A DNA stretch of 64,000 nucleotides from Eledone cirrhosa (Eukaryota), in contig OZ024741.1 of NCBI GenBank assembly GCA_964016885.1, positions 376,340,001 through 376,404,000 of the forward strand. The letters are read 5' to 3'. Below are positions 131 to 63,800 of this stretch, one piece after another. The notes under the pieces are model-generated. The model was not told where the DNA came from, did no database searches, and was given only the letters and a program-made list of their open reading frames with translations. A program made the translations under genes and the position numbers. Every line of letters begins with the position of its first letter. The first letter of the stretch is position 1.

Positions 131-2187
131 TATAATGTAGATGTATTTTTTTAAATAAAAATATATATTTAGATTTACACATTATTTTGCACAGAAATAT
201 AATACCTATATGTCAACATTATTTCCCAATTTATGTTAATTTTTTAATATATTAATTAATCTATACATTAAAACCTAGAGCAGAATGAATTTCATTTACG
301 ATTGAGTTAATTTGGCTCTATTCTTGCAAATAATTAGTAAGCTATTAAGATGCCATCTCAACGTAATTAACTCGAAATACAAGAAGAATTACACACTAAT
401 TTCAACTGACACATATATTCAAGACAGTTGTGTCAGCAGTAAATCTGGTTGATGATATCTACTGATAATTTACAAAAGTTTATCTTCTTGAAACGTCGTT
501 GAGAGATCAATTTGAAACATTACACCGGTTAATATTATATCCATCACTCATTCAATTAACTATTGCCTATTAACTATTGCCTATTAAAGTCAGAGCTTAT
601 TATAGTTAAACAGAAATTATGGTTCAAGACGATGTTTGAAATTCCGCCGTCACCATCACATAAAATTTATTATAATTTGCTCTCATAATGAAGTCAATTT
701 TTTCGCTTATCCGTAACATGTCAATTAGCCCTATTTAAACCAATACTTAAACCACACTGCATTGTTCAATAGTGTATTATAAATTGTGAAATGGCTTTCT
801 AAAATACGGAACGCCACAATATTTAATTGACGCTAAAATTAAAGACTGTTGATTCTGTCATTGAAGAGTTTAAATTCCATAGATTACTTTAGCATAAATT
901 CACAAATTGTAGGCACAGTATGTTAAATTATGGGAGACAGAATTGAGATTGCAATACTGGAACTGTGTAAATCAGGGTACATTTTAGGCAAAGCTGGCCA
1001 CATCATGATGACCTTTAGATATTACAAAATGCCTCGCCATAACGATCAATATGCAAATATCCCCGGTTTAATAGACTTTCGAATCTTCTCCATACCTCGT
1101 TTATAAAATATGCTATCGTGAATAGTATAAATATTTTGACATTATAATGCTTTTATGATTTAACTGGAGGAATAAAGAAAATGCCCCTGTATTTTGGAGG
1201 TTCTCCAAGATTGGTGAGATGGAAGTATTAATGCTGTGTTTGATTTTTTGAAGATTAATACTGGGAAAATATGGCTGTGGAAAAAATAGGTCGAATGACA
1301 TGCGACTCTTTCTGTGATTGATTATTGGATGCGTCGGTAAACACTGTTTTAGCTAGGTTGAACAGAGGCGTTGGTTTATATGAGAGAAGATACAATCCGA
1401 GCAAACCACATACGTATGACAGCAGATGATACAAAGAATACGAAAGGTCAGTCATATATGTTTTGTGTGTGCGTGTAAAAGTTGAAACAACCCATATATT
1501 TGATCGAACTTTAAATGTGGTTTGAAAAATATTTTGAAGGGAACAATAATTTCTTATGTTAGCCATGGACTGAAAGACCAGATGTTTCTGGAAGTAAAAT
1601 TATTAATGGAATACGAGATTACTATGTAGTCACATTATACCATAAGTGGTGTAGCATGCCTGAAGACAATACTATTTCATTCAATTGTTGTTCATGTCTA
1701 GGAAGTGTGAAATTCAATACTGAATCATAGTTATGTAAAATATCTGTGTAATGGTTATATTTATGCCGATTAAAGTGACATGTGGTGCTTGGATGTAATT
1801 ATGCGGCCTGTTTCCATGGTTCTCAGCGTACCTCTGACATGCAGCAGTTGGTTTAAATAAGGTGTAAATATATTTGAGGAAGATGTTGATATAATATAGG
1901 GAAGAATTCGTTATGAAGAAAGACTCATCAGAAGAATCAGGAAGTGTTTAGATGATGTAGGTTAGACTGAGTATGGGATTCAGAAAATCTATACTAATAT
2001 ACATTTGCATCGGTACATGTCGGAAAAGCAGTTGCAGAGCTACTGTGGATTATGGTGATGTGGCACATCAACAGGGAATTTCCTATCTGGCCAGAATTTG
2101 AAAATAAGGTTATTCTTCACAATTATTCTCTCGGCGAAATGATGATCGTCATTGAGGCATGTGCCAGTGGTTATTTGACTAGATAAT

Positions 2188-2671
<484 letters not shown>

Positions 2672-2966
2672 TAAAAACAAATAACGAAACGAAATTAAAT
2701 TTTGTTTCATTTGTAACTCACTTTTGTATGACTGACGCTTAAACAATTAAGTTAAAGATGTACATCCATATATGTATACTGAAATACTAGTATGTATATG
2801 AATACACACACGTATACATATGTAGATGTACCAAGTTTTTTCACTGGTCACTTTACTGTGAGTGGCCAGCTATTCTGTATGTAAACACACAGACAAACCG
2901 GTTTTTAGAGTCATACTGGTTTTTGAGGAAACACCTTTCCTCTATTCTCTAGAAAGCCAGACAAGG

Positions 2967-3011
2967 AATATTGAACTAGTTTCGTTGTTGTTACAACTCA
3001 TCAGCAATATT
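2967..3011 (-). ncRNA. Minimal type I hammerhead ribozyme, array copy 1
   Basis: Minus strand reads AAUAUUG-CUGAUGA-GUUGU aaca ACAAC-GAAA-CUAG-UU-CAAUAUU: 7-bp stem I, intact core, 5-bp stem II, palindromic stem III ACUAGU, GUU cleavage triplet. Confidence 0.9.
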
Positions 3012-3433
3012 TACCTATCTTCCGGCCTCTCTAGAGAATCGTAAAAGCACATATCGTTATATGCTTTTTCTATGAAAATTAGTAGTGGGCATACTAATTT
3101 GCATAGAGTGTGAGTAAGTACCGGTTCAACGGAGACGATAAAAACAAATAACGAAACGAAATTAAATTTTGTTTCATTTGTAACTCACTTTTGTATGACT
3201 GACGCTTAAACAATTAAGTTAAAGATGTACATCCATATATGTATACTGAAATACTAGTATGTATATGAATACACACACGTATACATATGTAGATGTACCA
3301 AGTTTTTTCACTGGTCACTTTACTGTGAGTGGCCAGCTATTCTGTATGTAAACACACAGACAAACCGGTTTTTAGAGTCATACTGGTTTTTGAGGAAACA
3401 CCTTTCCTCTATTCTCTAGAAAGCCAGACAAGG

Positions 3434-3478
3434 AATATTGAACTAGTTTCGTTGTTGTTACAACTCATCAGCAATATT
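3434..3478 (-). ncRNA. Minimal type I hammerhead ribozyme, array copy 2
   Basis: Identical to 2967-3011, offset +467. Confidence 0.9.
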
Positions 3479-3900
3479 TACCTATCTTCCGGCCTCTCTA
3501 GAGAATCGTAAAAGCACATATCGTTATATGCTTTTTCTATGAAAATTAGTAGTGGGCATACTAATTTGCATAGAGTGTGAGTAAGTACCGGTTCAACGGA
3601 GACGATAAAAACAAATAACGAAACGAAATTAAATTTTGTTTCATTTGTAACTCACTTTTGTATGACTGACGCTTAAACAATTAAGTTAAAGATGTACATC
3701 CATATATGTATACTGAAATACTAGTATGTATATGAATACACACACGTATACATATGTAGATGTACCAAGTTTTTTCACTGGTCACTTTACTGTGAGTGGC
3801 CAGCTATTCTGTATGTAAACACACAGACAAACCGGTTTTTAGAGTCATACTGGTTTTTGAGGAAACACCTTTCCTCTATTCTCTAGAAAGCCAGACAAGG

Positions 3901-3945
3901 AATATTGAACTAGTTTCGTTGTTGTTACAACTCATCAGCAATATT
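3901..3945 (-). ncRNA. Minimal type I hammerhead ribozyme, array copy 3
   Basis: Identical to 2967-3011, offset +934. Confidence 0.9.
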
Positions 3946-4367
3946 TACCTATCTTCCGGCCTCTCTAGAGAATCGTAAAAGCACATATCGTTATATGCTT
4001 TTTCTATGAAAATTAGTAGTGGGCATACTAATTTGCATAGAGTGTGAGTAAGTACCGGTTCAACGGAGGCGATAAAAACAAATAACGAAACGAAATTAAA
4101 TTTTGTTTCATTTGTAACTCACTTTTGTATGACTGACGCTTAAACAATTAAGTTAAAGATGTACATCCATATATGTATACTGAAATACTAGTATGTATAT
4201 GAATACACACACGTATACATATGTAGATGTACCAAGTTTTTTCACTGGTCACTTTACTGTGAGTGGCCAGCTATTCTGTATGTAAACACACAGACAAACC
4301 GGTTTTTAGAGTCATACTGGTTTTTGAGGAAACACCTTTCCTCTATTCTCTAGAAAGCCAGACAAGG

Positions 4368-4412
4368 AATATTGAACTAGTTTCGTTGTTGTTACAACTC
4401 ATCAGCAATATT
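4368..4412 (-). ncRNA. Minimal type I hammerhead ribozyme, array copy 4
   Basis: Identical to 2967-3011, offset +1401. Confidence 0.9.
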
Positions 4413-4871
4413 TACCTATCTTCCGGCCTCTCTAGAGAATCGTAAAAGCACATATCGTTATATGCTTTTTCTATGAAAATTAGTAGTGGGCATACTAATT
4501 TGCATAGAGTGTGAGTAAGTACCGGTTCAACGGAGACGATAAAAACAAATAACGAAACGAAATTAAATTTTGTTTCATTTGTAACTCACTTTTGTATGAC
4601 TGACGCTTAAACAATTAAGTTAAAGATGTACATCCATATATGTATACTGAAATACTAGTATGTATATGAATACACACACGTATACATATGTAGATGTACC
4701 AAGTTTTTTCACTGGTCACTTTACTGTGAGTGGCCAGCTATTCTGTATGTAAACACACAGACAAACCGGTTTTTAGAGTCATACTGGTTTTTGAGGAAAC
4801 ACCTTTCCTCTATTCTCTAGAAAACCAGACAAGGAATATTGAATATTGAAAAAACTTGGAATATTGAATAT

Positions 4872-4976
4872 TGAAAAAAACTTGGTACATCTACATATGT
4901 ATACGTGTGTGTATTCATATACATACTAGTATTTCAGTATACATATATGGATGTACATCTTTAACTTAATTGTTTA
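4872..4976 (+). repeat. Inverted ~105-bp piece of the 467-bp unit
   Basis: Reverse complement of ~2740-2843 (taaacaattaag...ccaagttttttca). Confidence 0.9.
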
Positions 4977-5383
<407 letters not shown>

Positions 5384-5387
5384 TGAC

Positions 5388-5694
5388 AGGAATTCCAACT
5401 TTGTCTGATTTACTCGTTTTATTTACAATCCTTTAACATTTATAATGGTATTATAGTGAAATAGTATGATAGAATATTAAATGTTAAGTGTTAATTGAAC
5501 AAGTACCTTCATGCTTTCGTAATCTTCAGGTTCATAATGTGTGGTGAGAGTCAAGTTTGAATTTTCTAGCAAACTTGACTTGTTCAATTAACACTTAACA
5601 TTTAATATTCTATCATACTATTTCACTATAATACCATTATATATTTTAAAGGATTGTAAATAAAACGAGTAAATCAGACAAAGTTGGAATTCCT
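5388..5694. repeat. Inverted repeat with ~117-bp arms (5388-5504, 5578-5694); probable short Penelope-type footprint
   Basis: Arms are reverse complements with few mismatches. The spacer holds an HHR-like core and a snap-back hairpin (5549-5580). Confidence 0.75.
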
Positions 5695-5994
5695 CTTATT
5701 AATATAATCTTCTATACACAATCCCGTGTATATCTATCTATCTATCTATCTATCTATTTATCAAAATCTAGCTGTCGTCTGTTCTACAGTGTGGATGTCA
5801 TTCACTTCGCACAGAAGTTTTGTTCAAATTTATTGAGGAAATTTTGTGAGTTCAAACTTAATTTTGATACAATTGTGTAGCTTGACCCTCCGTCTGAACT
5901 GTCAGGCGGTGGGTCAGCTCGTCTTTACCCCTCCTAGAGGTGAAAAACCTGTTTTAAAAAATTTTGTGTAAAAAATTTCAATCGTCTAACAGAA

Positions 5995-7899: not shown

Positions 7900-7932
7900 G
7901 TCTCTACACTCTCCTTTGGCTCTACCGCCCAC

Positions 7933-10900
7933 ATGGATGTGTTAAGAGTAGGATGTTTGAATGCACGTGGCCTGGGCTCAACTTGGAAGCAAGCAAAGCT
8001 TCTAAATGACCTCAGGTCATGTAGTATAAATGTAATGGTTATCTGTGAAACTCGAATCAGCGTCGTGCGGCAGCTGGCCCCCACCTTCGATGACTTTGCG
8101 GTGCATGCATCTCTCTGTCAACCTGGAGGTGGGGGTGGGGTTGTCGTACTGCTGCAAAAACACCTGGGTCTTGCCGTACAGGTTGTGCACTCGGACCCGG
8201 AGGGTCGTTTGTTGGTGCTAGACGTTGGCAGTAGTGAAAGTGCGGCCTTGAGATTGGTCGCCGTCTACTCCCCTTCCGGAGCTGAACGGCCCGACTTCTT
8301 CCAGCGTTTGGAGACTTTTCTGGGAACGTCGCGTTCCCTGCTTCTAGCGGGGGATTGGAATGACATCCTGGATGCACGTTGGGACTATGCAGGAGCATGT
8401 CCTAATAGAGAGGGGTGTAACAGCCTCAAAGGGTTACTCGACCGTTTTAACTTGGTCGATAGATATCGACTAGATTTTCCAACTGTGCCTACCTGGACTT
8501 GGAGAAACCACAGTGGTCAATCTAGATCGTACTTAGATAGATTCTTAGTTAGAAGTAAGGATAGGGACATATTAAGCTGTCCAGAAATGCGCACGGTTGG
8601 CTACACGGATCACAAATTAGTGACCTGCGTGGTCAATCTCGAGAAAACACATAGACAGGGTCCCGGTTACTGGAAACTTAATTTGTCTTTACCGGCAAAA
8701 GATACTTACAGAAACCGGATTAGCAGATTAGTTAAGGAGAGGTTGACGGGTGCAATCGTCAACAACCGATGGTGGGCATCTCTCAAAAGAGAAATTAGAA
8801 CAGAATCAATAAGTTATAGCAAGATGTTAGCTGCCGATAGGAATAGAAACGAGAAAGAATTAACAGGTAAATTAGAAGAGGCAATCAAGAGCGAAGATGT
8901 GGCCAGAGTGCTGGCATCGAGGACGGCCTTGAACCAGTTTTTCGATGCAAAGCACGAAGGCTGCGTCATTCGAAGTAAAATACGTGCTCTAGGTAATGAG
9001 GGGGCCAAAGCCGTTGGATGGGGCGGCGTGACAGAAGCTAAGAGTGGAAATCGATCCACCATCCGGTCGTTGCAAGACGAAGATGGACGGGTGATCCGGG
9101 AGCCTAAGCAGATGTGCGAGGCCTTTCAAAGGCACTTTGCCCGATTGTTCGGGGGAGGCGAGGGTCCGGGCGGGGGCGTGGATTTCGGTCCATACCTCGA
9201 CGACCTGCCGCGTCTCTCGAACGAAGAGGCAGAGTCCTGCGAGGGACCAATCTCGGCTGATGAGATCGGAGATGCGCTGAGCCAATGGAGCAGACGCAAA
9301 TCTCCAGGTCTCGATGGTATACCTTACGAACTTTATTTAGCAATGCCGGTCTTCTTCTCCGAACTCCTCGAAGCGGTCTACTGCAATTGGCAGCAGAACG
9401 GGAGAATTACTTGTTCTGTAGCCAAGGGCGTAGTCACGCTGGTGAGGAAGGACGAGAACAAGGGGGATAGTATAAATAATTTTCGGCCCATAACCCTGCT
9501 AAACACAGAGTTAAAGATTTTGGCCAAGGTGTTAGCAAAGAGGTTGGCGCTTGTCGTGGGTGGCCTGGTGGGAGATGCGCAGACATGTGCTATCCCATCC
9601 AGGTCCATTCACGATAACCTCCACCTCATGCGATACATCATAGAGAGGGTTGGCAACAAACCCGGCCTCGGTGGGGCCCTGATCAACTTGGATCAGTCTA
9701 AGGCCTTCGATAGGGTCGACCATGGTTACCTGGATGCGGTGCTAGCGGCGGCTGGGTTCGGTCCTGTTTTCAGAGGCTGGATCACTGCCCTACATAGCAA
9801 CCACATCTGTTCTAGGATCAAGGTGAACGGCTACCTTTCGAAGCCGTTCGAAATCACACGATCCATTCGACAGGGGTGCCCTCTCTCCTCCCTTCTGTAC
9901 GTATTGACTCTCGATCCTTTACTGAGGAAGTTGGAGTTGTTGCAGGGTATCCCCCTGGAACCAGGATTGAGCAAAGCGGTGTCGGCCTACGCCGATGACG
10001 TAACAGTAATGGTATCGACCGACTCGGAGATCGAGGCGATCGGTACCTTACTGGAGGAGTACGAAAGGTTGTCAGGAGCGAAACTGAACCGGGAAAAATC
10101 CATCGGGCTGCAACTCGGAACGTGGAGAGGCAGACCGATGCCTCCTGACGGTGTCGTCGGACACTGGACGGAGGGCCCGGTAAAGTTGTTTGGGGTCTGG
10201 TTTGGACCGGACCTCCAGGTGGAAAAGAACTGGAACGAGGTTACGAACAAGGTGTTTGCACTAACCCAGAAATGGGCCAAGTGTAAGCTGTCCCTAAAAG
10301 GCCGGGCGGAGGTGGCGAACATTTACATAGCGTCCGTCACTTACTACCGCCTGACTGTCGTGCCTAGCCCTAAGGAAACACTCACCACCATGGAACGCAT
10401 GCTCTTCCAATTTCTTTGGAAGAAGCGTCCTCCTATGGTGAGAAGATCCATCTGCTGCCAACAACCTTCGAAAGGAGGGCTGGGGATGCCGTGGTTGATG
10501 ATGCGTAGGCACGCATTAAGGCTACGGCACCTACAGGTATTCCTCACTGGTCAACCGGTGTGGGCTCCGTTCGTGAAACGAGCCTTTCCGAGACTCGTCT
10601 CGCTCACCGAGCTACAGTCCTGGGTCAAGCAAAGATCCGGAAAACTGGGAGACTGGCACACTGAGTGTGCTCAGGCGCTCAGGGCTCTCTGGCAAGCGGG
10701 CCAGGCCATCGGTGGAGAATCCACCTCATCATTCTATAGAGGGCTGGTTGCTAGCAGGGGCGATGACACCCTTGGAGAGTCGCTGGACATGGAAGAAGAC
10801 GAACTGGCCAGCCTGTTCGGTAGGACTTTCGGCCCAGGACCAATGGACAACTTCCAGAAGTCACTGGCCTGGCAGTGCTACCGGGGGGCTCTACCCGTTC

Positions 10901-11370
10901 GAGAGAGGTTCTACAGACACGGGCGCCTGGGCAGGGATCCCTCAAAACAGATTTGCCCTAGATGCGTGCGTCACGAAGAAACCGTTGCGCACGCATTGGT
11001 GCAATGTCCGGGCGTGGCTGATCTGTGGGGCTACGCCGAACGACTGCTGTCGCGGGTGGCGCCGATTAAATTGACCGCCGAGTCCGTGATGACAATCAAA
11101 CCGCCTCCCCTCTTCACAAATGAAGCAAAGGCGGTTTTTCTGTGCGTAATAGCCATGTTGAAAGAGGTTGTCTGGTGGACACGATTGAAAGGTCTGAGGT
11201 CAGGCAACTTCCTCTCTGGCCATAGTCTGGTCTACTTCTTCCGATATCACTTCGGAAGAAGGATAAGAATGGAGAGAGAGGTGCTTGGCCACAGGCAGTT
11301 TTATGAAAGGTGGGTGATAGTGGCGAGAATGGCTCGTGTAAATGGGCCTTCTCTGTATACCATCCTGTAG
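7933..11370 (+). CDS. LINE ORF2: AP endonuclease, reverse transcriptase and C-terminal zinc finger (1145 aa, open)
   Basis: LNARGL, CET, GDWN, YLDRF, TDH (APE); SPGLDG, FRPITLLN, KAFDRV, RQGCPLS, YADD (RT); CPRC-x7-H-x4-C. Confidence 0.95.
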   Translation: MDVLRVGCLNARGLGSTWKQAKLLNDLRSCSINVMVICETRISVVRQLAPTFDDFAVHASLCQPGGGGGVVVLLQKHLGLAVQVVHSDPEGRLLVLDVGSSESAALRLVAVYSPSGAERPDFFQRLETFLGTSRSLLLAGDWNDILDARWDYAGACPNREGCNSLKGLLDRFNLVDRYRLDFPTVPTWTWRNHSGQSRSYLDRFLVRSKDRDILSCPEMRTVGYTDHKLVTCVVNLEKTHRQGPGYWKLNLSLPAKDTYRNRISRLVKERLTGAIVNNRWWASLKREIRTESISYSKMLAADRNRNEKELTGKLEEAIKSEDVARVLASRTALNQFFDAKHEGCVIRSKIRALGNEGAKAVGWGGVTEAKSGNRSTIRSLQDEDGRVIREPKQMCEAFQRHFARLFGGGEGPGGGVDFGPYLDDLPRLSNEEAESCEGPISADEIGDALSQWSRRKSPGLDGIPYELYLAMPVFFSELLEAVYCNWQQNGRITCSVAKGVVTLVRKDENKGDSINNFRPITLLNTELKILAKVLAKRLALVVGGLVGDAQTCAIPSRSIHDNLHLMRYIIERVGNKPGLGGALINLDQSKAFDRVDHGYLDAVLAAAGFGPVFRGWITALHSNHICSRIKVNGYLSKPFEITRSIRQGCPLSSLLYVLTLDPLLRKLELLQGIPLEPGLSKAVSAYADDVTVMVSTDSEIEAIGTLLEEYERLSGAKLNREKSIGLQLGTWRGRPMPPDGVVGHWTEGPVKLFGVWFGPDLQVEKNWNEVTNKVFALTQKWAKCKLSLKGRAEVANIYIASVTYYRLTVVPSPKETLTTMERMLFQFLWKKRPPMVRRSICCQQPSKGGLGMPWLMMRRHALRLRHLQVFLTGQPVWAPFVKRAFPRLVSLTELQSWVKQRSGKLGDWHTECAQALRALWQAGQAIGGESTSSFYRGLVASRGDDTLGESLDMEEDELASLFGRTFGPGPMDNFQKSLAWQCYRGALPVRERFYRHGRLGRDPSKQICPRCVRHEETVAHALVQCPGVADLWGYAERLLSRVAPIKLTAESVMTIKPPPLFTNEAKAVFLCVIAMLKEVVWWTRLKGLRSGNFLSGHSLVYFFRYHFGRRIRMEREVLGHRQFYERWVIVARMARVNGPSLYTIL

Positions 11371-16932: not shown

Positions 16933-19900
16933 ATGGATGTGTTAAGAGTAGGATGTTTGAATGCACGTGGCCTGGGCTCAACTTGGAAGCAAGCAAAGCT
17001 TCTAAATGACCTCAGGTCATGTAGTATAAATGTAATGGTTATCTGTGAGACTCGAATCAGCGTCGTGCGACAGCTGGCCCCCACCTTCGATGACTTTGAG
17101 GTGCATGCATCTCTCTGTCAACCTGGAGGTGGGGTGGGGTTGTCGTACTGCTGCAAAAACACCTGGGTCTTGCCGTACAGGTTGTGCACTCGGACCCGGA
17201 GGGTCGTTTGTTGGTGCTAGACGTTGGCAGTAGTGAAAGTGCGGCCTTGAGACTGGTCGCCGTCTACTCCCCTTCCGGAGCTGAACGGCCCGACTTCTTC
17301 CGGCGTTTGGAGACTTTTCTGGGAACGTCGCGTTCCCTGCTTCTAGCGGGGGATTGGAATGACATCCTGGATGCACGTTGGGACTATGCAGGAGCATGTC
17401 CTAATAGAGAGGGGTGTAACAGCCTCAAGGGGTTACTCGACCGTTTTAACTTGGTCGATAGATATCGACTAGATTTTCCAACTGTGCCTACCTGGACTTG
17501 GAGAAACCACAGTGGTCAATCTAGATCGTACTTAGATAGATTCTTAGTTAGAAGTAAGTATAGGGACATATTAAGCTGTCCAGAAATGCGCACGGTTGGC
17601 TACACGGATCACAAATTAGTGACCTGCGTGGTCAATCTCGAGAAAACACATAGACAGGGTCCCGGTTACTGGAAACTTAATTTGTCTTTACCGGCAAAAG
17701 AGACTTACAGAAACCGGATTAGCAGATTAGTTAAGGAGAGGTTGACGGGTGCAATCGTCAACAACCGATGGTGGGCATCTCTCAAAAGAGAGATTAGAAC
17801 AGAATCAATAAGTTATAGCAAGATGTTAGCTGCCGATAGGAATAGAAACGAGAAAGAATTAACAGGTAAATTAGAAGAGGCAATCAAGAGCGAAGATGTG
17901 GCCAGAGTGCTGGCATCGAGGACGGCCTTGAACCAGTTTTTCGATGCAAAGCACGAAGGCTGCGTCATTCAAAGTAAAATACGTGCTCTAGGTAATGAGG
18001 GGGCCAAAGCCGATGGATGGGCCCGCGTGACAGAAGCTAAGAGTGGAAATCGATCCACCATCCGGTCGTTGCAAGACGAAGATGGACGGGTGATCCGGGA
18101 GCCTAAGCAGATGTGCGAGGCCTTTCAAAGGCACTTTGCCCGATTGTTCGGGGGAGGCGAGGGTCCGGGCGGGGGCGTGGATTTCGGTCCATACCTCGAC
18201 GACCTGCCGCGTCTCTCGAACGAAGAGGCAGAGTCCTGCGAGGGACCAATCTCGGCTGATGAGATCGGAGATGCGCTGAGCCAATGGAGCAGACGCAAAT
18301 CTCCAGGTCTCGATGGTATACCTTACGAACTTTATTTAGCAATGCCGGTCTTCTTCTCCGAACTCCTCGAAGCGGTCTACTGCAATTGGCAGCAGAACGG
18401 GAGAATTACTTGTTCTGTAGCCAAGGGCGTAGTCACGCTGGTGAGGAAGGACGAGAACAAGGGGGATAGAATAAATAATTTTCGGCCCATAACCCTGCTA
18501 AACACAGAGTTAAAGATTTTGGCCAAGGTTGGCGCTTGTCGTGGGTGGCCTGGTGGGAGATGCGCAGACATGTGCTATCCCATCCAGGTCCATTCACGAT
18601 AACCTCCACCTCATGCGATACATCATAGAGAGGGTTGGCAACAAACCCGGCTTCGGTGGGGCCCTGATCAACTTGGATCAGTCTAAGGCCTTCGATAGGG
18701 TCGACCATGGTTACCTGGATGCGGTGCTAGCGGCGGCTGGGTTCGGTCCTGTTTTCAGAGGCTGGATCACTGCCCTACATAGCAACCACATCTGTTCTAG
18801 GATCAAGGTGAACGGCTACCTTTCGAAGCCGTTCGAAATCACACGATCCATTCGACAGGGGTGCCCTCTCTCCTCCCTTCTGTACATATTGACTCTCGAG
18901 CCTTTACTGAGGAAGTTGGAGTTGTTGCAGGGTATCCCCCTGGAACCAGGATTGAGCAAAGCGGTGTCGGCCTACGCCGATGACGTAACAGTAATGGTAT
19001 CAACCGACTCGGAGATCGAGGCGATCGGTACCTTACTGGAGGAGTACGAAAGGTTGTCAGGAGCGAAACTGAACCGGGAAAAATCCATCGGGCTGCAACT
19101 CGGAACGTGGAGAGGCAGACCGATGCCTCCTGACGGTGTCGTCGGACACTGGACGGAGGGCCCGGTAAAGTTGCTTGGGGTCTGGTTTGGACAGGACCTC
19201 CAGGTGGAAAAGAACTGGAACGAGGTTACGAACAAGGTGTTTGCACTAACCCAGAAATGGGCCAAGTGTAAGCTGTCCCTAAAAGGCCGGGCGGAGGTGG
19301 CGAACATTTACATAGCGTCCGTCACTTACTACCGCCTGACTGTCCTGCCTTGCCCTAAGGAAACACTCACCACCATGGAACGCATGCTCTTCCAATTTCT
19401 TTGGAAGAAGCGTCCTCCTATGGTGAGAAGATCCATCTGCTGCCAACAACCTTCGAAAGGAGGGCTGGGGATGCCGTGGTTGATGATGCGTAGGCACGCA
19501 TTAAGGCTACGGCACCTACAGGTATTCCTCACTGGTCAACCGGTGTGGGCTCCGTTCGTGAAACGAGCCTTTCCGAGACTCGTCTCGCTCACCGAGCTAC
19601 AGTCCTGGGTCAAGCAAAGATCCGGAAAACTGGGAGACTGGCACACTGAGTGTGCTCAGGCGCTCAGGGCTCTCTGGCAAGCGGGCCGGGCCATCGGTGG
19701 AGAATCCACCTCATCATTCTATAGAGGGCTGGTGGCTAGCAGGGGCGATGACACCCTTGGAGAGTCGCTGGACATGGAAGAAGACGAACTGGCCAGCCTA
19801 TTCGGTAGGACTTTCGGTCCAGGACCAATGGACAACTTCCAGAAGTCACTGGCCTGGCAGTGCTACCGGGGGGCTCTACCCGTTCGAGAGAGGCTCTACA

Positions 19901-20355
19901 GACACGGGCGCCCGGGCAGGGATCCCTCAAAAAAGATTTGCCCTAGATGCGTGCGTCACGAAGAAACCGTTGCGCACGCATTGGTGCAATGTCCGGGCGT
20001 GGCTGATCTGTGGGGCTACGCCGAACGACTGCTGTCGCGGGTGGCGCCTATTAAATTGACCGCCGAGTCCGTGATGACAATCAAACCGCCTCCCCTCTTC
20101 ACAAAGGAAGCAAAGGCGGTTTTTCTGTGCGTAATAGCCATGTTGAAAGAGGTTGTCTGGTGGACACGATTGAAAGGTCTGAGGTCAGGCAACTTCCTCT
20201 CTGGCCATAGTCTGGTCTACTTCTTCCGATATCACTTCGGAAGAAGGATAAGAATGGAGAGAGAGGTGCTTGGCCACAGGCAGTTTTATGAAAGGTGGGT
20301 GATAGTGGCGAGAATGGCTCGTGTAAATGGGCCTTCTCTGTATACCATCCTGTAG
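16933..20355 (+). pseudogene. LINE ORF2, copy 2, frameshifted
   Basis: 1-bp loss in the G-run near 17131 and a 14-bp microhomology (aggt) deletion near 18528 relative to copy 1. Confidence 0.9.
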
Positions 20356-60899: not shown

Positions 60900-63800
60900 C
60901 AAACAAGGCATTTAGTCTTGGCAGCTGGAACGTACGGACGCTGCTTGACAGGGATTCCTTGGAGCGTCCTGAACGAAGGACCGCTCTTGTTGCAAAGGAG
61001 CGTCGACGTTACGATCTTGACATCGTGGCTTTATCTGAGACGAGGTTAGCTGGAGATGGTCATCTTACGGAATTTTGTGGAGAATATACATTCTTCTGGA
61101 AAGGAAGAGATGAAGGAACCAGAAGAGAGGCTGGGGTAGGATTTGCTGTTAAGACTGTACTTGTGAATAAATTAGAAGAATTCCCAGTAGGGATTAGTGA
61201 GCGTCTTATGTCCATGAGAGTTCCGCTGGACAAGGGAAGATATGCTACCCTGGTGAGTGTGTATGCTCCAACTATGAATTCTGTCGATGAAGAAAAAGTG
61301 TCCTTTTACCATGCCTTGAAAGGTGTTTTAAGAAATATCCCTCAGGAAGACAAAGTCATCGTGCTTGGTGACTTTAATGCTAGAGTGGGTAGGGATTTTA
61401 ACACATGGAATGTAAAAGGCATGGGGTGGGAAAGTATAACAACGATGGTATGCTCCTGCTGCAGATGTCTGAGGAGCTGGATCTGTGTGTTACCAACACC
61501 ATGTTCCAACAAAAGAACAAATTCAAGACCACATGGATGCATCCTGCATCTAAGGAATGGCATCTTTTGGACTACATCCTAGTCAGGATGCGTGACAGAC
61601 AGGATGTGCAGTGTGTTCGTGCTCTTCGTGGAGCTGAGTGCTGGACGGATCACCGCTTGGTACGCGCAAAAGTGAAACTAATCACTAAACGTAAAATCCG
61701 GGCTCCTGGTGTTGCCCTGCCCAAAAGATTGAATGCTGCTCGTCTTAAGGATAAAAATGTGAAGAGGACATTGGAAGAAGAGATGCAGGCTGCAGATCTT
61801 GATGATGATTGGCCGACCCTTAAAAAGTCGGTTTATGATGTAGGCAGGCGTGTTCTGGGATTGGTGCAGAGAAAACATCAGGACTGGTTTAATGAGAATG
61901 ATGTACATATAGAAGACTTGTTGGCTGATAAGAGGCGTGCTCTGTCACGCTACTTGACGGCAAAACAACAGGAGAGGAATACGTTGCATGAGGAACTCAG
62001 GGATGTAAAATCACGTGTTAGGCGGAGTCTTTCTCAGATGAAGGATCAGTGGTGGAGTGAGAAGGCTGGTGAGATACAAACTGCGTCAGATTCCAATAAC
62101 ACAAAGCTGTTGTACAGTCTCTTGCGTGACGTTTATGGACCGTCTTCTTTGGTGACACCGCTTCGCAGCAAGGATGGCAAAGAACTTTTTCGTGACTCAC
62201 AAAGAATTCTACGAAGGTGGCGAGAGCACTTTGATGATCTTTTGAATCAGCCGTCTGTCGTCAGTGAAGATTTCCTCAATCTCATTCCAGAAAGTCCTGT
62301 GAAAGTTGCTCTCGCAGAACCTCCGACGCTTGTGGAGGTTGCAGTGGCTATTTCGAAGCTGAACAGTGGAAGATCTCCAGGTATGGATGGCATACATGCT
62401 GAGCTCCTACAATATGGTGGTGAGAGACTCCTGCAACATCTTCACTCTTTGTTTGGCAGGATATGGGCTAATGAATCAGTACCTGAGGACTGGAGAGATG
62501 CAGTAATGGTGGTCTTGTACAAGGGAAAGGGTAACAGGAATGATTGTGGGAACTACAGAGGTATATCATTGCTTTCTGTCGTGGGAAAGGTTTATGTAGG
62601 GTGCTTCTGGACCGTCTGCTGACACACATTGCAGATTGTGTTCTTCCTGAAAGTCAATCTGGTTTTCGTACTGGACGCGGCACTACTGATATGATCTTCT
62701 CAGCTAGACAGCTCCAGGAGAAGTGCATGGAACAAGGCTTGGATCTGTATCAGGTTTTTGTCGATCTGACAAAAGCTTTCGATACTGTTAACAGAGATGC
62801 ATTATGGAAGGTTCTCCAGAAACTTGGTTGGCCTGATAAGTTCCTTGCTTTAGTTAGGTCTTTCCATGACGACATGAAGGATTGGGTTAATGTCGGAGGT
62901 AACATGTCGGAGCCTGTCTCAGTAAAAAATGGAGTGAAACAGGGGGATATTCCGGCACCGACCCTGTTTGCCATATACTTTGCAATGGTTTTCTGTATTG
63001 CATTCAGGAATTGCGAGCATGGTGTTTACATCCAATATCGAACCTCAGGCAACATAATTAACATCAGGCGCTTTGCTGCGAAGACAAAAGTATTTACATC
63101 AATCATAAGAGACCTCTTGTATGCAGATGATTGCGATTTTGTATCGCACACAGAGAGTGATATGCAGCACATTTTGAATGCATTTTCTGACGCTTGCACT
63201 GCCCTAGGATTGACTGTCAGTCTCAAGAAAACTGTCGTCATGTACCAACCTGCCCCTGGTAAGCAGTACACTGAACCACACATCTATGTGTATGGCAAAC
63301 GACTTTAGTGGTTGATCAGTTTGTCTACCTGGGAAGCACTGTCAATCGATACGGCAACCTTGACAGTGAAATCTCACTTAGGATTAGGAAAGCAAGTGAT
63401 GCTTTCGAAAAGCTAGAAAGGCGACTCTGGGGTCGGCGAGACATATGCAGGAGGACAAAGGTAAAGGTGTACAGGGCATGTGTGCTCTCTTGTCTTCTTT
63501 ATGCCTGCGAGACCTGGGTCACATATCGACACCACCTTAAGCAATTGGAGCGTTTCCATCAGATGTGTCTCAGACGGATCCATGGCGTTCACTGGAGGGA
63601 CCACATCAGTGATGTCGAGATTTTGGAAAGCTCTATGTGTGACAGTATAGAAGCTCTTGTGCTTAAGCAACGACTCCGTTGGAGTTGTCACCTTGCCAGG
63701 ATGAAGGATTCTAGAATACCAAAACAACTCTTTTATGGAGAGTTGGTTAAAGGAAAACGACCGCCACATAAACCAAAAAAAGAGGTATAAGGATTCCTTG

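Follow-up and report, generated by a model that had tools for sequence, protein, structure and literature searches.

The 64,000-nucleotide stretch of the Eledone cirrhosa genome analyzed here (contig OZ024741.1, positions 376,340,001 to 376,404,000 of the forward strand; hereafter, the window) contains a repeat array at positions 2672 to 4843, in which 4.65 tandem units follow each other with a period of 467 and are 99.9% alike. This array is the longer of two unequal, head-to-head arms of what is probably a single insertion, bounded by a 12-bp direct duplication. In what follows, "phase" is the position counted along the RNA, starting at the first base past the predicted ribozyme cut. The features of the locus are as follows.

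2180..2638, no strand: left arm of the host-site inverted repeat, with its partner at 4977..5361; contains the end of another repeat family
2662..2673, plus strand: left target-site duplication, 12 bp, the same as 4976..4987; the bordering bases differ
2672..4843, minus strand: arm A, 4.65 tandem 467-bp units; outer end at start site A, phase 302/303
2967..3011, minus strand: first copy of the type I hammerhead motif; predicted cut at 2973/2974 and again at +467, +934, and +1401
4835..4843, minus strand: arm A's inner end, which falls at predicted cut number five (4841/4842); microhomology leaves an ambiguity of 3 to 4 nt
4844..4874, no strand: junction insert from local slips, with a 7-nt duplication and a 25-nt duplication
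4875..4976, plus strand: arm B, inverted, 102 nt, phases 133 to 234; outer end at start site B
4976..4987, plus strand: right target-site duplication, 12 bp, identical to 2662..2673

Arm B is 100% identical to the unit, and the last 2 nt of the left target-site duplication match the unit as well. The host inverted repeat is near perfect, includes microsatellites, and carries two ends, both of the long type, that belong to a third repeat family; it likely predates the retrozyme insertion, which sits near its center. An inverted duplication of the flank was considered as a part of the mechanism and rejected, the window being the sole clear case among 109 loci. Among the sequencing-run contigs listed, none spans the window junction; run X1 shows loose ends at both start sites. 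Elsewhere in the window, LINE-type frames with endonuclease and/or RT domains lie at 7900 to 11370 (an open frame of 1,156 aa), 17100 to 20355, and 62544 to 63308.

The repeat unit and its predicted hammerhead

Every 467-bp unit contains a type I hammerhead, with the minus strand as the RNA sense. The motif is made up of a 7-bp stem I, CUGAUGA, a stem II of 4 to 5 bp, GAAA, a stem III of only 2 bp with a palindromic loop, and a GUU triplet. A search of the unit in Rfam gave no match at the gathering score; the hammerhead was found by its motif and by covariation among subfamilies. Its core is kept across 199 fetched loci, and among subfamilies, stem II varies in a compensatory manner and the triplet switches between GUU and GUC. 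In the available text of PMC4209133, metazoan type I motifs are described as pairing through the palindrome of stem III. For two copies of the present hammerhead joined via this palindrome, co-folding predicts −20.4 kcal/mol, versus −8.5 kcal/mol for a single copy.

No protein-coding frame overlaps the array at a threshold of 250 aa, nor does it hold the ORF for an RT with a GIY-YIG endonuclease that defines autonomous Penelope-like elements. The array ends are RT start sites, and there is no LTR structure. By every feature that can be tested in DNA, the 467-nt element is a non-LTR retrozyme.

Family census and pairing of the arms

The family comprises at least 2,176 insertions, a count based on one exact end pattern alone. 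We mapped 206 loci, made up of 37 obtained via DNA searches and two sets of 89 and 80 selected by the outer end only; that is, 169 loci were picked by the A end and 37 without regard to the end. Before counting, we set aside the window, L089 (whose long array is cut off on either side), L121 (a duplicate of L120), segments shorter than 25 nt, and any end coinciding with the limit of the sequence fetched. One further locus, L162, was dropped from the counts of start phases, arm matches, read-through, inner phases, junctions, and duplications.

Most loci consist of two head-to-head arms. Their outer (RNA-3′) ends (n = 341) lie at site A in 199 cases, at site B in 120, and elsewhere in 22. Site A is phase 303 in 192 of the 199 A-type ends, while the 120 arms of the other type start at phases 226 to 235, chiefly 229, 231, and 234. 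The two start sites are 70 nt apart, and each arm has one of them. When both ends of a head-to-head pair are canonical, the combination is A+B in 102 cases, B+B in one, and never A+A. The 37 loci that were not selected by their ends include 21 A+B pairs and, again, no A+A pair.

When arms are compared, partners within a locus prove reciprocally closest, outright or in a tie, in 82 of 116 loci (median identity, 99.5% versus 96.2%), which indicates that both arms derive from one template variant. The remaining 34 of the 116 arm pairs are not best matches and count against the reading that we prefer below. The same is true of 48 A arms without an adjoining arm of at least 20 nt, 15 of which are accompanied by a short B remnant and the rest by none. 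In one case, L369, a variant without site B has a single arm. At L277, the whole insertion has a second, inverted copy at a distance of 4 kb, and the two contain 0.82 and 1.82 units; unit numbers can therefore change after insertion, and arm length is not purely a product of the RT.

Target sites are mostly (TA)n, and a TA-like flank is present in 92 of the 102 complete loci. Informative direct duplications were found in 35 of these loci, compared with 10.2 (maximum, 16) in shuffles, and their commonest length is 12 bp. The inner junctions (n = 140) show microhomology in 77 cases, mainly of 1 to 6 nt; another 14 are blunt, and 49 contain an insert.

RNA-5′ ends and the predicted cut

The original prediction concerned the inner end of arm A. 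Because this end coincides with a predicted cleavage site, where a random breakpoint would land within a 3-nt window in well under 1% of cases, the junction was taken as genomic evidence of cleavage in vivo. The structure itself is as it was described: the predicted cuts fall at 2973/2974 plus multiples of 467, the fifth is indeed 4841/4842, and identity to the unit persists up to 4843 and is lost at 4844. Likewise, the stutter at the junction (25 nt) and the inverted piece of the unit (102 nt at 4875 to 4976) are real, with TGAA on both sides. The figure for chance (3/467, or 0.6%) is correct for one end, but it does not place this end beyond chance genome-wide. With at least 2,176 insertions and about 1.7 RNA-5′ ends in each, about 24 ends are expected in any 3-nt window, so that one end at the cut is not above chance.

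As a check, it had been proposed to plot the 5′ boundaries of all arrays against the cut, with a uniform distribution named as the outcome that would speak against cleavage. Near uniformity is what we found. Of 348 RNA-5′ ends in the 206 other loci, 4 are no more than 2 nt from the cut, where 3.7 are expected, and 2 no more than 1 nt from it, where 2.2 are expected; the distribution of the 348 ends is indistinguishable from flat (15-bin chi-square, P = 0.13). We also searched the genome with a pattern for the cut and three control patterns of equal design, the control positions having similar word conservation. Internal variants were removed from the matches (10 of 23 for the cut and 4 of 10, 3 of 18, and 0 of 14 for the controls; one control end, L211, is borderline), which left 13 true ends at the cut (that of the window among them) versus 6, 15, and 14 at the controls (P = 0.42). 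Since there is no excess over either the expectation or the controls, ends at the cut were rejected as a rule of the family. Moreover, the cut is read through by 250 of 319 arms and twice by 116 of them.

Arm A of the window itself reads through the cut four times, and its partner, arm B, stops at phase 133. Inserts of at least 8 nt are present at 18 of 140 junctions, several of them copied from neighboring sequence, which makes the stutter in the window ordinary. Together with the near-uniform ends and the comparable controls, these observations deprive the window junction of its value as evidence of cleavage. If the two arms were primed from the two target strands, as proposed below, that arm A stops at the cut is most likely a coincidence.

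A minority class of loci near the cut

A rare class of insertions at other loci, to which that in the window does not belong, possibly records cleavage in vivo, although weakly, as the class was defined post hoc and replication failed. At C1:218.587 Mb (L182/L183), there are three stops of copying at phase 1 and two restarts at phase 439/440. When a pattern permitting offsets of 0 to 22 nt was used, all four matches showed an offset of 0 to 1; they stem from two loci, this one and L369 (C5:81.646 Mb), and the joints from the cut to 439/440 are without microhomology. The units at these two loci lack the ribozyme core and are joined exactly at the cut to 439/440.

A second, post hoc pattern concerns both arms. 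For loci with an end at the cut or at phase 23 to 25, the partner arm halts at phase 7 to 25 in the first pass in 8 of 21 cases, whereas this is so in none of about 20 far controls. The flanks of these eight loci are unrelated, yet four of them share one junction. Only 2 of 136 pairs in the unselected sets are of this kind. First-pass ends near the cut were in excess in the discovery sets (12 versus 5.1), but when this excess was fixed beforehand as a test, it failed in 80 new loci (4 versus 5.3); later-pass ends near the cut numbered 7 versus 3.0 in the same 80 loci. Ends at phases 1 to 30 outnumber those at phases 438 to 467 (33 versus 13, with 22 expected for each), which we counted against our preferred reading; in the replication set, the numbers are 10 versus 5 (P = 0.3).

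The excess at phases 1 to 30 could also come from a stall at the predicted stem. For this minority class only, both the excess of ends close to the cut and the pairs of ends there may be ascribed to stalling of the RT at the long stem flanking the ribozyme, combined with favored microhomologies, an account that we regard as possible but somewhat doubtful. It agrees with the predicted pairing of phases 1 to 30, with the absence of the first-pass excess upon replication, and with the recurrent junctions that were found at a control site too. However, stalling would not confine both arms to the first pass, nor would it yield microhomology-free joints exactly at the cut, as in the four of four matches at offset 0 to 1.

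Sister families and Penelope-like elements in the same genome

A sister family with a 420-nt unit (L214:564-984 and L361:2692-3264) has its own type I hammerhead and the same palindromic stem III. Its start sites are homologous to A and B, and one A+B pair was present among the copies met by chance. In a third small family, for which 10 other loci were fetched, seven head-to-head pairs combine one long and one short end. This family (L327 to L334) has a possible minimal hammerhead, and its long ends mostly adjoin (CA)n, its short ends (TA)n.

The genome contains 10,595 GIY-YIG candidates. Those that were translated carry a Cys linker, a feature described for Neptune-type Penelope-like elements in the available text of PMC8557442. 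Head-to-head pairs of the autonomous GIY-YIG elements join a long to a short end in all eight resolved cases, two more being ambiguous. A Penelope-type insertion would be expected to share sequence with the pLTR of an autonomous partner. Comparison of the unit with the Penelope-like sequences in 50 loci, out of the 10,595 candidates, revealed no likeness above chance and no autonomous partner, which counts against the reading that we prefer. A strong match in L361 was rejected as a partner because it belongs to the neighboring sister retrozyme, and a 22-nt match in another family was rejected as evidence for one because it lies inside the ORF of that family.

Judging from their long open GIY-YIG Penelope-like frames (1,096, 938, and 844 aa, respectively), L371, L372, and L373 are candidate active elements. 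In the window, short head-to-head 3′ ends of an autonomous Penelope-like family, 85 to 91% like L385, occupy positions 5381 to 5753, with the short end on the left and the tailed end on the right. A minimal hammerhead motif is present in the left arm of this pair. The core has disappeared from the right arm, where the sequence is rejoined roughly 2 nt away from the predicted cut, with a microhomology of 3 nt.

Proposed priming from both target strands

We consider it likely that the window holds one two-arm insertion, with different fixed start sites and a 12-bp duplication, for which a Penelope-type enzyme cut and copied from both strands of a (TA)n target. The architecture, the two start sites and how they pair, the duplication, read-through of the cut, the near uniformity of the inner ends, and the short microhomologies are observed; from them, we infer the following priming steps. 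A Penelope-type endonuclease/RT would cut both strands of the (TA)n target with a 12-nt stagger, leaving two 3′ ends. One 3′ end would prime at site A (phase 303) and the other at site B (phases of about 229 to 234), the two sites flanking a predicted hairpin in the RNA. Both cDNAs would then be extended round and round an RNA that is circular or uncleaved, halt at positions that are close to random, and be joined end to end by microhomology with local slips. The enzyme would probably act as a dimer on one RNA.

These steps have parallels in vitro. According to the available text of PMC11167929, a Penelope-like protein cuts and extends both strands, synthesis starts at two internal sites bounding the tail, and ribozyme cleavage is unneeded; the protein is also predicted to dimerize. 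The rule of one site per arm was counted here on 103 pairs, whereas the in vitro study, as far as its available text goes, is a bulk one with no strand difference. A bulk measurement of start sites says nothing on pairing within one event.

It is also plausible, though we put it forward more tentatively, that two-end rollout by a Penelope-type dimer, bound to one RNA circle at two fixed sites and cutting the target with a 12-nt stagger, gave rise to Penelope and retrozyme arrays alike, the rare class near the cut reflecting cleaved linear RNA and ribozyme-less mini-circles closed at the cut.

The original prediction offered a different template, one with a 5′ end produced by hammerhead cleavage. 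At this locus, it would be a multimeric RNA in which the four ribozymes farther downstream had escaped cutting, with the RT running off the cleaved end and slipping. Our data uphold both RT-driven retroposition and microhomology joining, but a template 5′ end from cleavage is mostly unsupported, and we think this model unlikely. The end in the window does lie within 2 nt of the cut, the same 7-nt stutter recurs in 4 of 13 cut-ending loci versus 3 of 35 control ends (P = 0.07), and other loci suggest that cleaved RNAs exist. R2 elements provide a precedent in that, in the available text of PMC3774820, a 5′ HDV-like ribozyme could set the template's 5′ end, and their junctions are variable and involve chance microhomologies, as here. 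R2 junctions follow the cleavage site, however, whereas retrozyme junctions do not (4 of 348 versus 3.7 expected). Besides this lack of an excess at the cut, 4 ends lie there following two or more passes, versus 4, 11, and 5 at the controls. Finally, two of the stutter loci, L201 and L202, were copied 3 to 5 nt past the cut, which requires a continuous template.

Self-priming or fold-back at a palindrome, the cause proposed for the inverted copies of Penelope-like elements in the available text of PMC8557442 and PMC3846280, is a very improbable origin of the head-to-head arms: inner ends lie within 12 nt of each other in 9 of 91 pairs versus 4.9 expected and some junctions recur at palindromic spots, but the difference between the inner phases is otherwise flat, the near independence of the two phases argues against fold-back, and the fixed second site of the second arm, flush with the target duplication, would be left unexplained.

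Comparison with known systems

As described in the available text of PMC7229834 and 10.64898/2026.07.22.740005, animal non-LTR retrozymes are likewise short, tandem type I hammerhead units of low GC content that are non-coding, and their target duplications exceed 4 bp, as here. The 467-bp unit is slightly above the 150 to 450 bp given for them. A circular template and a Penelope-like origin have been proposed for these elements in the same sources, whose available text describes them as tandem copies, without head-to-head arms or paired fixed start sites.

Endonuclease-bearing Penelope-like elements likewise have an inverted, 5′-truncated copy adjoining the main one and a "tail" at one end only (available text of PMC8557442, PMC3846280, and PMC11167929). 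They also share the (TA)n bias and the two internal RT start sites, although the duplications reported for them are 8 to 10 bp compared with 12 bp here. Unlike these elements, the retrozyme is non-coding, its tail is 70 nt rather than the 30 to 40 nt given for them, and its arms roll round a small unit up to 12 times or more. A further parallel is L1 twin priming, in which both target strands prime cDNA to produce a 5′ inversion joined by microhomology. The second priming site of L1 is variable, whereas in the retrozyme neither site varies and most insertions have two arms. Our literature search, which was thin on subscription journals, found no report of a two-arm retrozyme architecture or of its origin by two-strand priming.

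The formation of tandem or inverted tailed Penelope-like insertions is called undefined in the available text of PMC8557442, and arguments on how animal retrozymes are mobilized have drawn on their phylogeny and type of ribozyme. Being small, non-coding, and present in thousands of young copies, the element offers countable evidence on Penelope-type insertion: the strict pairing of one start site per arm, the 12-bp stagger, arms from the same template, and ribozyme read-through. The pairing rule is directly testable with the existing in vitro system. At the same time, in so large a family, a single end at the cleavage site is no evidence of cleavage. Should the reading of a dimer on one RNA circle be true, a single mechanism would account for the tandem arrays of both kinds of element as well as for the copy in head-to-head orientation and the tail on one side only.
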